Shown here one piece after another: positions 9,001 through 12,000 of a DNA stretch of 64,000 bases; the first letter of the stretch is position 1; each line of letters begins with the position of its first letter. Source of the DNA: a virus. Taxonomy: Duplodnaviria; Heunggongvirae; Uroviricota; Caudoviricetes. The position numbers are program-made. The stretch is taken from IMG/VR virus record IMGVR_UViG_2718218172_000010; one strand, written 5' to 3'.

Positions 9001-12000
9001 TCGCTGGTTGTTCGCAATCAATGATTAGCCTCGTAGCTACTGGCCGTAGTCAGTTAAGCCCCGAAAAGGTATTGCGTATCGCGGAGGCTACGAATTTCGA
9101 GGTTACACCTCATGAACTTCGGCCTGATATCTACCCGAATCCGACCGATGGTTTACCTGTTGGATGTAAAGCTAACACACAAAATGCACAGGAGTTGATT
9201 CATGAAAATCAGGCATGAGCACATTGAATCAGTGCTGTTAGCCCTGGCCGCTGAAAAAGGGCAGGCATGGGTAGCCAATGCAATTACTGAAGAATATCTG
9301 CGCCAGGGGGACGGCGAATTGCCCTTGGTACCAGGCAGGGACTGGAACAATCAGCAGAATATCTATCATCGTTGGTTAAAAGGTGAAACGGAAGCGCAAA
9401 GGGAAAAAATTCAGAAGCTGATCCCAGCAATTCTGGCAATCCTTCCGCGGGAGCTGCGTCACCGACTCTGCATCTTCGATACCCTGGAACGCCGTGCATT
9501 ACTGGCGGCGCAGGAAGCGTTGAGTACGGCAATTGATGCGCATGATGACGCAGTCCAGGCCGTTTACCGTAAAGCGCATTTCGGCGGTGGTGGAGCGTCC
9601 GACGATTCTGTTGTAGTGCATTGATTGAAATTAATCGTGCCGGATTGTTTTGTTCGGTATCAGTTAAATGTAACGCTGCGAGCGTTACAAGGTGAAAACA
9701 AATGGCTTCAAACTGGATAAAGCTCGAGGTTATTACGCCGGATAAGCCGGAAATATTCAGGCTTGCTGAGATTCTGAATATTGATCCAGATGCCGCATTA
9801 GGGAAGGTTATTCGCTTCTGGGCATGGGCGGATCAACAAATGATAGACGGTAATGCAGATTGTAACGCTCGCGGCGTTACAAAAAGTGCAATAGATCGCA
9901 TCACTTTTATGGCTGGTTTTGCTGATGCGTTAATTCAGGTTGGATGGCTGGTCGAAAATGACGGTGGGCTTTCTCTACCTAACTTTGAACGTCATAACGG
10001 GAAAAGCTCTAAAAAACGGGCGGTTACAAACGAGCGAGTTACAAAAATACGCGAACTGAAACGAAAGGGTAACGCTGCCAGCGTTACACAAACGGATCAA
10101 AAAGCGTTACCAGAGGAAGAGGAAGAGGAAGATATAAATACTGATCTAACCCATCCCAAACCCTTCCCTTCCGGAAGGGAGTTCCGGGATTTTGTGGCTG
10201 GAGTGCTTGAGGGGAGATTATCTGGCGGTACTGCAGCGGAATTTTGTAATTCTGCGGTGGTTGCGTTGCAGGCTGCTGGCCTGGATGTCTGTCGTGAGTA
10301 TCCGGTGCCAGAGCGTGGTGACGGCTGCGGAGGGCGGATTGATATCGTCGTGACTGACAGGAACGGTGTCCGGTGTGGGATCGAGCTTGACCGAAATTCT
10401 CCGCGACAGAAATCACTGCTCAAAATCGGTGCTGTTGAAACCGGGATATGTGTCTTGCGGCGCAGTGATATCGCAAGGCACACCGAGCAGGGAATTCTGG
10501 TTATCGGTGGGGCTGTTCGCCAGAAAAAATTTGACCCGTTGTCTGTTGATCTGCCCGACTGGTTGCCGGAAACACTCTGGCATGAGTGGGTCCGGTTCAG
10601 ACAGGCATTGCGAAAACCGATTCGAACGGAGCAGGGCGCTAACGGGGCGATACGGGAACTGGAAAAATTCCGTCAGCAGGGTTTTACACCTGAGCAGGTG
10701 ATTCGACACAGCATCGCCAATGAATACCAGGGCCTGTTCGCGCCGAAAGGTGTTCGGCCAGAGACGTTGCTCCGACAGATTAACACCGTCTCGTTTCCGG
10801 ACAGTGCGATCCCGCCAGGCTTCAGGGGGTAACAGACCATGAAAAATATTGCGACAGGCGGCGTTCTGGAACGTATCCGCAGACTGGCCCCGCCACATGT
10901 AACCGCGCCATTCAGGACGGTGGCGGAGTGGCGCGAGTGGCAACTTGCAGAAGGCCAGAAACGTTGTGAGGAGATCAACCGTCAGAATCGTCAGTTGCGG
11001 GTGGAAAAAATCCTGAATCGTTCCGGCATCCAGCCGTTGCACCGCAAATGCTCGTTTGCGAATTACCAGGTGCAGAACGACGGCCAGCGATACGCGTTGA
11101 GCCAGGCGAAATCCATCGCCGATGAACTGATGACCGGATGCACAAATTTCGCATTCAGCGGAAAACCTGGTACCGGGAAAAACCACTTAGCGGCGGCTAT
11201 CGGAAATCGCCTGCTGAAAGATGGCCAGACAGTGATTGTGGTTACCGTGGCTGATGTTATGAGTGCTCTACACGCCAGCTATGACGACGGGCAATCAGGC
11301 GAAAAATTTTTGCGGGAACTGTGCGAAGTGGATCTGCTGGTTCTTGATGAAATTGGCATTCAGCGCGAGACGAAAAACGAGCAGGTGGTACTGCACCAGA
11401 TTGTTGATCGCCGGACAGCGTCGATGCGCAGCGTGGGAATGCTGACAAACCTAAACTATGAGGCCATGAAAACGCTGCTCGGCGAGCGGATTATGGATCG
11501 CATGACCATGAACGGCGGGCGCTGGGTGAATTTTAACTGGGAGAGCTGGCGCCCGAATGTTGGTCAGCCAGGTATTGAAAAGTAATTTTTACCGGGAGGA
11601 AATTTATGGAGACTGTTTTTGACGCACTGAAAGCGATGGGAAAAGCCACGTCGGTAGAGCTGGCTGCGCGACTTGATATCAGTCGTGAAGAAGTACTGAA
11701 CGAGCTGTGGGAACTGAAAAAGGCTGGCTTCGTTGATAAAAGCGTATACACCTGGCGTGTGGCTGATAACAACGTTCAGCAGGAACAGCCAGCGCCAGAA
11801 GAACAGCCGGAAGAAACCACCACGGCGACAGTAGCGAAAATCTCAGAGTGCGATTTAACCGCGACGATTGAACAACGCGGACCACAAACGGCGGATGAAC
11901 TGGCTACGCTGTTCGGTACAACATCCCGCAAAGTGGCTTCAACGCTGGCAATGGCAATCAGCAAAGGTCGTCTGATTCGTGTTAATCAGAACGGTAAATT

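Follow-up and report, generated by a model that had tools for sequence, protein, structure and literature searches.

What three near-identical palindromes do in and just before a phage replication-initiator gene is the question raised by the stretch of DNA studied here, a 64,000-nucleotide window from the Caudoviricetes virus record IMGVR_UViG_2718218172_000010. The region in question was the immunity-replication module of a Rac/CP-933P-like lambdoid prophage, with 100% identity to Escherichia coli strain cq9. An earlier note on the sequence had described 19-bp palindromes at 9670–9688, 9862–9880 and 10069–10087, one in the 5' leader and two within the first third of the initiator open reading frame (ORF), and had likened them to the iterons of phage lambda. 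Comparison with homologues showed that selection acts on the palindrome DNA, that this DNA is linked in cis to the N-terminal domain (N-domain) of the initiator, and that its elements co-vary as a set. Judged from these sequence patterns, the palindromes are probably the initiator's own binding sites, which would form, together with an adjacent tract, the replication origin of the phage inside the initiator gene.

The window was scanned with the pattern GTAACGCT-N3-AGCGTTAC (GTAACGCTNNNAGCGTTAC, up to three mismatches). Exactly three matches were obtained, at 9670, 9862 and 10069, where 0.12 were expected by chance, and 0 of 100 dinucleotide shuffles reached three. The matches at 9670–9688 and 10069–10087 had no mismatch, and that at 9862–9880 had one, in its GGCGTTAC arm. 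The centre-to-centre distances were 192 bp and 207 bp. Relative to the initiator ORF (9702–10832), one site lay 32 nt before the ATG and the others at +160 and +367, so the palindromes and their placement were as the earlier note had described them. The elements of the cassette and of its host gene are as follows.

9670–9688, no strand: leader palindrome GTAACGCTGCGAGCGTTAC, non-coding, in the spacer between ydaT and the initiator gene; proposed to be a lineage-specific auxiliary site
9702–10832, plus strand: initiator ORF, 376 codons
9702–10133, plus strand: initiator N-domain, residues 1–144, with a predicted helical and winged-helix fold; proposed reader of the sites
9850–9856, plus strand: GTAATGC, a degenerate left half-site that precedes site 1 by 12 nt; it is GTAACGC in the homologous loci L001, L009 and L011
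9862–9880, no strand: site 1, palindrome GTAACGCTCGCGGCGTTAC, read as C-N-A-R-G-V-T (residues 54–60) in a low-confidence N-domain loop
10058–10064, plus strand: GAAACGA, a degenerate left half-site that precedes site 2 by 11 nt
10069–10087, no strand: site 2, palindrome GTAACGCTGCCAGCGTTAC, read as G-N-A-A-S-V-T in a disordered linker; centre of the proposed origin core
10104–10111, plus strand: right half-site GCGTTACC, abutting the polypurine tract
10112–10132, plus strand: polypurine tract AGAGGAAGAGGAAGAGGAAGA, the local form of a family repeat (GAGAA)n; proposed unwinding or single-strand element
10133–10146, no strand: A+T-rich stretch TATAAATACTGATC, which contains a GATC and lies where the N-module ends

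The two degenerate left half-sites and the 21-nt all-purine run at 10112–10132 had been overlooked at first reading. The half-site that had been noticed near 10104–10110 proved to be the right half-site listed above, and was kept in nearly all homologues. The GTTACAA half-sites also noticed were present as motifs, at 10023–10029 and 10038–10044; their standing as DNA elements could not be demonstrated. They overlapped the strongly conserved peptide R-A-(L/V)-T-N-x-R-V, from which they were inseparable, and most homologues had CTTAC there.

The homologue set was drawn from 96 protein clusters, from 75 loci (one genome per species), from annotated phages, and from viral contigs recovered in a second viral scan, for which a divergent member served as seed. 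An initial viral scan and a scan of metagenomes gave mostly near-identical E. coli-type loci. By pattern, about 500 viral contigs and about 550 from metagenomes were matched. Homologues of the N-domain were found in more than 100 distinct loci, with protein identity to the window down to about 40%, and their hosts included Enterobacterales, Pseudomonadales, Burkholderiales, Planctomycetes, Verrucomicrobia (including Akkermansia), Ignavibacteria and Acidobacteria. The palindrome was present at two equivalent intragenic positions in homologues of 40–70% protein identity, from at least six phyla. GTAACGC-N5-GCGTTAC occurred in nearly all loci, the first copy falling within +136 to +172 and the second within +334 to +412, and site 1 was missing from some lineages (L020 and L052). 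A relaxed core pattern was matched 87 times in 43.9 kb of gene and immediate flanks versus 5 times in 231 kb of surrounding DNA, a 92-fold enrichment (1.98 per kb in or next to the gene versus 0.022 per kb in the flanks).

Adjacent sites in the homologues were mostly 189–231 bp apart, with a median of 214 bp (the spacings seen were 189, 198, 204, 207, 209–212, 215–221 and 228–231). The wide spacing had been called unusual; because it was kept among the homologues, it is itself a conserved property. The burden of coding through the sites, regarded as unusual as well, is eased by their placement in a disordered loop and a disordered linker. Helical phasing of the sites was considered and rejected, since no obvious 10.5-bp steps were seen by inspection of the spacing values. 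In a Verrucomicrobia clade (L042–L070), degenerate sites lay at about −57, +148, +355, +538 and +700–728, about 180–205 bp apart, and no clear polypurine tract was present. Judged by sequence, this arrangement is a different version of the same theme.

In Pusillimonas sp. T7-7 (NC_015459.1), the homologue was carried by a 41,205-bp circular record deposited as a 'plasmid'. The record is the full genome of a temperate phage, encoding integrase, terminase, capsid and tail proteins, and the one initiator that could be recognised in it, a member of the phrog_2509-type family (38043–38816), lay beside a DnaC-like ATPase. The sole copies of the palindrome and of the polypurine tract in this phage-plasmid both lay inside the initiator gene.

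Could the palindromes be a by-product of a protein motif, without any function as DNA? The protein alignment had a near-invariant G-N-A-x-x-V-T at site 1 (N51, A52, V59 and T60 were nearly invariant), and both intragenic sites of the window read as N-A-x-x-V-T. However, the synonymous positions were fixed as well. In 46 sequences below 80% identity, from loci of 43–68% G+C, codon use at site 1 was GGT in 34/40, AAC in 36/36, GCT in 26/35, AGC in 24/24 (for six-fold Ser) and GTT in 35/43. The share of the commonest codon was 88% at site 1 versus 51% at 68 other conserved degenerate positions (p = 1.8e-4). A change from Asn to His (AAC to CAC) was always paired with the synonymous change of GTT to GTG in the opposite arm (35:6, with 0 mixed). 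The second right half-site after site 1 was encoded by GCG TTA, with Ala as GCG in 12/12 and Leu mostly as the rare TTA.

Site 2 was read in three frames among the homologues (frame 1, n = 21; frame 0, n = 7; frame 2, n = 6), with different peptides: the DNA that gives G-N-A-A-S-V-T in the window gives V-T-L-A-A-L in Klebsiella phage ST11-OXA245phi3.2. All six frame-2 cases carried the GTCAC variant, and GTAAC is excluded from this frame because a TAA stop would arise. In the Planctomycetales locus L038, both sites and three extra half-sites were TTGCGCT..AGCGCAA, and the site-1 peptide had shifted to G-C-A-P-S-A-T to match. Furthermore, the leader copy is non-coding, and the motif sits in a loop between N-domain helices with a predicted local distance difference test (pLDDT) score below 50 (residues 50–57); this loop and the site-2 linker region tolerated insertions in homologues. 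On these sequences, an origin of the palindromes in protein conservation alone is considered excluded, with next to no probability left to it. The conservation beyond amino-acid constraint that the earlier note had left to a comparison of homologues was found, in fixed synonymous codons, in several reading frames and in concerted half-site switches, across phyla. The presence of a functional element at the DNA level is close to certain.

The palindromes did not stand alone. Each intragenic site centred a small array, with left-oriented (G)GTAACG upstream at 11–12 nt pitch and right-oriented GCGTTAC downstream, and one to three GTAACG(N) half-sites at this pitch preceded site 2 in homologues. 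The clusters held one full palindrome and single half-sites, and were 189–231 bp apart. These half-sites bear on the proposal that the palindromes work as hairpins, either as stem-loops of the messenger RNA (mRNA) in translation or decay, or as single-stranded DNA hairpins or cruciforms signalling primosome assembly or priming. Each palindrome folds, with a stem of 8–10 bp and a 3-nt loop (−10.9 to −15.4 kcal/mol, z about −3); 88% of cells pair, two stem positions have changed on both sides, the loop bases vary freely, and DnaT-like C-terminal domains (C-domains) occur in several homologues. However, the stem sequence was nearly invariant across phyla, with 3/8 pairs never varying, and the few double changes were identical at all sites of a locus, not independent in each hairpin. 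Moreover, the isolated half-sites, which are unable to form a hairpin, were conserved and co-varied with the palindrome. No Rfam covariance model matched 9400–10400 at E up to 1. No T-run followed any palindrome on the plus strand, and the sole match to an intrinsic terminator at these sites was a weak consensus on the minus strand (10087–10069). A hairpin function is regarded as improbable, and sequence-specific reading would be required in any case, because the stem sequence is conserved and the lone half-sites co-vary.

As for what reads the sites, the half-site variants were informative. The majority form was GTAACGC, and the variants were GTCACGC, CTAACGC, GT(T/G)ACGC, TTGCGCT and GTCACA. 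Within a locus, all recognisable sites and half-sites nearly always shared one variant (L068 and L036 were mixed), and this concerted switching is the pattern that would be expected of a recogniser encoded in cis. The GTCACGC half-site occurred in at least three protein backgrounds. The variants were independent of host taxonomy, with GTAAC and GTCAC types both found in Pseudomonadales and in Burkholderiales. The N-domain was the only constant partner of the sites, and the C-domains and the neighbouring genes varied among homologues. Since the variants ignore taxonomy and the neighbours and C-domains vary, the initiator would be the most economical candidate reader. The TTGCGCT/AGCGCAA type, found in L038 (168–812) and L271 (site 2 at +338), had the layout intact, with the palindrome, two or three right half-sites at 11–12 nt pitch, and the tract.

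Alternatively, a different conserved factor, from the host or from the phage, might bind the sites, or they might be conserved junctions that favour the exchange of initiator modules by recombination. The stretch formed by site 2 and the tract corresponds to residues 123–144 and ends the conserved N-module; it coincides exactly with the point at which homologues have swapped N- and C-modules and beyond which the C-modules differ. The similarity to distant homologues (H6–H13) stopped at query position 541, which is 10140 in the window, and the cassette therefore closes the N-module. In addition, no specificity-determining residue was found in the N-domain, a point in favour of this alternative. 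Residue 55 (N, H, D or C) was the only residue tracking the A/C switch at half-site position 3, and it is encoded by site 1 itself, so that the correlation is built in. As a necessary base reader it was rejected, being broken by L052 (Ser with a GTCAC site 2), L020 (Asp/Glu with GTAAC) and L271 (no Cys with the TTGCGC type). Co-evolution of protein and DNA is implied by the linkage of the sequences, not at the level of residues. A host factor is nevertheless unlikely because the variants ignore taxonomy. No other gene was constantly linked. Recombination alone cannot keep a 19-mer and a 25-mer fixed in genes whose proteins have diverged to 40% identity; site 1, moreover, lies away from the junction. 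Taken together, another factor or a recombination function is held to be quite improbable, less so only than a protein by-product.

The polypurine tract was the second conserved component, and with site 2 and the half-sites around it makes up the conserved core of the cassette. The junction (GCGTTAC or GCGTGAC)C(T)AGAGAAGAGAAGAGAAGAGAAGA was found in most of 77 distinct loci, and a few kept the tract without a recognisable half-site (such as the lineages L259–L263). The tract encoded REEKRREE in 56 of these loci, PEKRREEK in 20 and QRREEK in 1, and a single T insertion accounts for the difference in frame. A 20-nt window with at least 19 purines was present at this place in 82/108 distinct homologous genes versus 15/1271 control windows. 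The tract was 86–87% purine and 60–66% A+T. In the window, the 21-nt all-purine run was directly followed by ATATAAATACTGATC, and the tract by ATATAAATA. Since the cyclic peptide encoded by (GAGAA)n does not depend on the frame, frame alone cannot separate selection on DNA from selection on protein here. The Arg codons of the tract were exclusively AGA, even in genomes of 60–68% G+C, and such use of AGA in G+C-rich hosts points to selection on the nucleic acid.

Binding sites of this kind could also be autoregulatory operators only, at which the initiator or another phage regulator represses or roadblocks the replication operon, with the origin elsewhere. Repression of the rep gene by its own product, acting at inverted-repeat forms of the iterons, is common among plasmids; the leader site lies just upstream of the ribosome-binding site, and the intragenic sites could serve as roadblocks. 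However, a promoter scan found no promoter-like sequence overlapping any of the three palindromes, and the majority of lineages lacked the leader site but retained the intragenic sites and the tract. It was present at −32 to −44 in Escherichia/Shigella, Winslowiella, 2/3 Serratia loci and two Pantoea loci, and was missing from the other Enterobacterales homologues examined (Serratia fonticola, Pectobacterium, Samsonia and Uetakevirus-type loci) and from most other phyla. In L011 it was a duplicate of site 1 including the flanks, and the leader site, confined to some Enterobacterales, looks like a duplication of site 1. Operators alone would also leave unexplained the fixed junction with a 20–25 nt polypurine tract and the half-site arrays, and the 41-kb circular phage-plasmid described above had no other candidate cassette. 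A purely autoregulatory role is therefore thought improbable, to about the same degree as a hairpin function.

The reading as an origin inside the initiator gene, which we prefer, can be set out in steps. The N-domain, with its predicted winged helix, would bind the full palindrome as a dimer, with further protomers on the flanking half-sites. Site 2 and its half-sites would position initiator oligomers beside the polypurine/A+T tract, and the core of duplex opening would comprise site 2 (10069–10087), the half-sites at 10058–10064 and 10104–10111, and the tract at 10112–10146. Host DnaB and the DnaC-like YdaV would next be recruited through the C-domain. Site 1 (9862) and the leader site (9670), about 200 bp off, would be auxiliary, raising the local initiator concentration or looping onto the core. 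The leader site might also damp expression, and both of these sites are possibly autoregulatory. The reading of the sites by the initiator, the melting of the tract and the start of replication at the cassette are what we infer. Five GATC sites were seen within 600 bp (9783, 9831, 9894, 10095 and 10143; about 2.3 expected for random sequence), two of which bracket site 2 and the polypurine tract, and control by Dam/SeqA through these sites is possible.

The best-studied layout of this kind is that of lambda. In lambda and Stx phages, inverted-repeat iterons and an AT-rich tract in the central part of O make up the origin, which can be unwound with only two of the iterons and the tract present (PMC7466680). 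As in lambda and the Stx phages P27 and 933W, the elements here lie inside the initiator ORF, at the boundary of a putatively DNA-binding N-domain and a proposed loader-recruiting C-domain (PMC7466680). Also shared are 19-bp dyad-symmetric sites, beside a strand-asymmetric A+T/purine-rich tract that may be the counterpart of lambda's, and an N-domain that travels with its sites as a module while the C-domain matches the loader partner. The half-site array running into a near-invariant polypurine tract at the N/C junction makes the parallel to the lambda layout. The lambda analogy of the earlier note held for this layout, with sites at or before the N/C junction, and did not hold for an array of adjacent iterons: lambda has 4–6 adjacent full iterons, whereas here there is one palindrome per cluster with convergent half-sites at 11–12 bp pitch, and two or three such clusters are spaced by about 200 bp. 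Where lambda has a plain AT-rich tract, the cassette has a near-invariant (GAGAA)n. The N-domain is not of the Phage_rep_O type, and the loader is DnaC-like, unlike lambda P. By this analogy, the arrangement is in concept a variant of the lambda design of an origin in O.

A bolder version of the origin reading is possible, though we consider it doubtful: a distinct and ancient type of origin, in which the palindrome and its convergent half-sites set the initiator at a fixed junction with a polypurine repeat of 5-nt period that is itself the active opening element. The repeat is transcribed within the initiator mRNA, and purine-rich RNA on a pyrimidine template is unusually stable, which might nucleate an R-loop. 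Alternatively, the repeat might be held single-stranded by the initiator, as DnaA holds DnaA-trios. Helicase loading would follow a restart-primosome-like route through DnaT-like or YdaU-type C-domains. Because (GAGAA)n encodes the same E/K/R linker in all frames and has no stop codon, it would be 'frame-proof', and this would explain its spread across phyla inside a gene. In the basal unwinding system of bacterial chromosomes, DnaA boxes adjoin DnaA-trio repeats on one strand. The likeness would be in layout only (a double-strand site, a fixed junction and a short-period repeat on one strand, here of 5-nt purine units), whereas DnaA, DnaA boxes and a 3-nt trio period are all absent here; it is an analogy, not membership.

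The remaining features of the module in which the cassette lies are as follows.

8374–8838, minus strand: cI-like repressor gene
8916–9218: YdaS/Cro-like gene
9202–9624: YdaT/CII-like gene
10151–10523, plus strand: PD-(D/E)xK-like domain, an in-frame insertion in the initiator linker (residues about 150–274), outside the conserved cassette
10524–10832, plus strand: YdaU/'O-like' C-domain of the initiator with a DnaT-like tail (…IPPGFRG); proposed loader-recruiting module
10839–11585, plus strand: DnaC/IstB-like ATPase YdaV, putative helicase loader (PF01695, E = 5e-20)
Downstream of YdaV: gene for a DUF1627 protein

The initiator matched phrog_2509, 'replication initiation protein', with E = 1.4e-85 for the whole protein and 4.6e-73 for residues 1–143. 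N-domain residues 1–144 matched no Pfam family at E up to 10 and no NCBIfam model, and were not Phage_rep_O (PF04492); the predicted structure model had a winged helix. The C-domain, the last approximately 100 residues of the initiator, matched phrog_6451 and phrog_678 and is common to the Rac prophage of K-12. The order of repressor, YdaS, YdaT, initiator, DnaC-like YdaV and DUF1627 is that of the K-12 Rac oriJ/YdaU-YdaV region, and the initiator C-terminal third had 92–95% DNA identity to it (92–95% from the initiator 3' end against K-12 ydaU/ydaV), K-12 matching only at query positions 976–1301. In both, a repeat cluster lies inside the gene at the end of the N-domain. However, the YdaU N-domain is of the unrelated DUF1376 type, for which the window initiator had no Pfam match, and the ydaU repeats are of the TGTTCAAACA type, not GTAACGC palindromes. 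In K-12 MG1655, ydaU (L161, 1253–1359) carried four to five copies of (A/C)AGATGTTCAAACA, one inverted, and then an A+T/GATC-rich stretch, at the end of the N-domain. Its equivalent placement fits the reading as an origin, and so does the confinement of palindrome and tract to the initiator gene in the Pusillimonas phage-plasmid. This cluster is a candidate for the sequence core of oriJ; a definition of oriJ at the sequence level was not found in the searchable literature, and the K-12 comparison rests on the repeat search of this analysis. Iteron plasmids with winged-helix Rep proteins (for example pSC101 RepA, R6K pi and RK2 TrfA) differ in having direct repeats of 17–22 bp outside the rep gene, whereas the repeats here are inverted, intragenic and widely spaced.

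The insertion domain started directly after the polypurine/A+T tract, was about 125 residues long, and was lacking in most relatives (its boundaries were set against L001); it was carried by only 38 of about 1500 matching E. coli genomes. Its AlphaFold2 model had a pLDDT of 93, with best PDB matches to the PD-(D/E)xK nucleases Bax1, NucS/EndoMS, AF1548 and Card1 (probability 0.9–0.99, E = 3e-3 to 6e-2), and acidic and Lys residues were conserved. Among 296 representative homologues, it also occurred in the linker of lambda-O-type initiators (P0102, 78% identical, and P0133) and as free-standing proteins of 100–130 aa. The insertion looks like a mobile nuclease-like module targeting initiator linkers or origins. 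Within it, an inverted repeat TTCCGGAAGGGAGTTCCGGGA followed by TTTTGTGG at 10169–10189 was terminator-like on the plus strand. Many homologues had a CCCCC…GGGGG inverted repeat (peptide P-P-x-G) shortly 3' of the tract; lambda has a palindrome on the right side of its AT-rich tract.

At its other end, the initiator tail …DSAIPPGFRG (10776–10829, residues 358–376) matched the last 19 residues of E. coli DnaT (NF002770, E = 2e-3), and full DnaT-like domains (PF17948) were present in other N-domain homologues. By sequence likeness, the tail may be a shared docking motif for DnaB/DnaC or PriB. Upstream, the published YdaT operator is TTGATT-N6-AATCAA (PMC9986795). Operator-like sequences were found at 9195–9212 (TTGATTCATGAAAATCAG, at the end of ydaS, the published OM position; PMC9986795) and at 9621–9638 (TTGATTGAAATTAATCGT, at the ydaT stop, with the leader palindrome about 35 nt further downstream). 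TTGATT-N6-AATCAA was not enriched across the window, with 8 matches versus 6.3 expected.

A full-text literature search gave no description of the palindrome sites or of an origin of the phrog_2509 family, though older subscription literature may hold some; the CP-933P and Rac papers found cover repressor, YdaS and YdaT operators only. The new features are the fold family of the initiator, the palindrome with convergent half-sites in clusters about 200 bp apart, the near-invariant polypurine repeat of 5-nt period, and the conservation across phyla. The locus is also an unusually clean case of a DNA element and a protein on the same nucleotides, in which the amino-acid motif appears to be conserved owing to the DNA and not the reverse. 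The natural specificity variants could be used in the design of orthogonal replicons, and the TTGCGCT/AGCGCAA types would be useful for testing the site reader. If the cassette is the origin, the start of replication would be defined for phrog_2509, a large and so far uncharacterised family of initiators, and palindrome, half-site and polypurine tract would provide a simple signature for annotating phage origins. The role of the conserved polypurine repeat in origin opening would then become directly testable.

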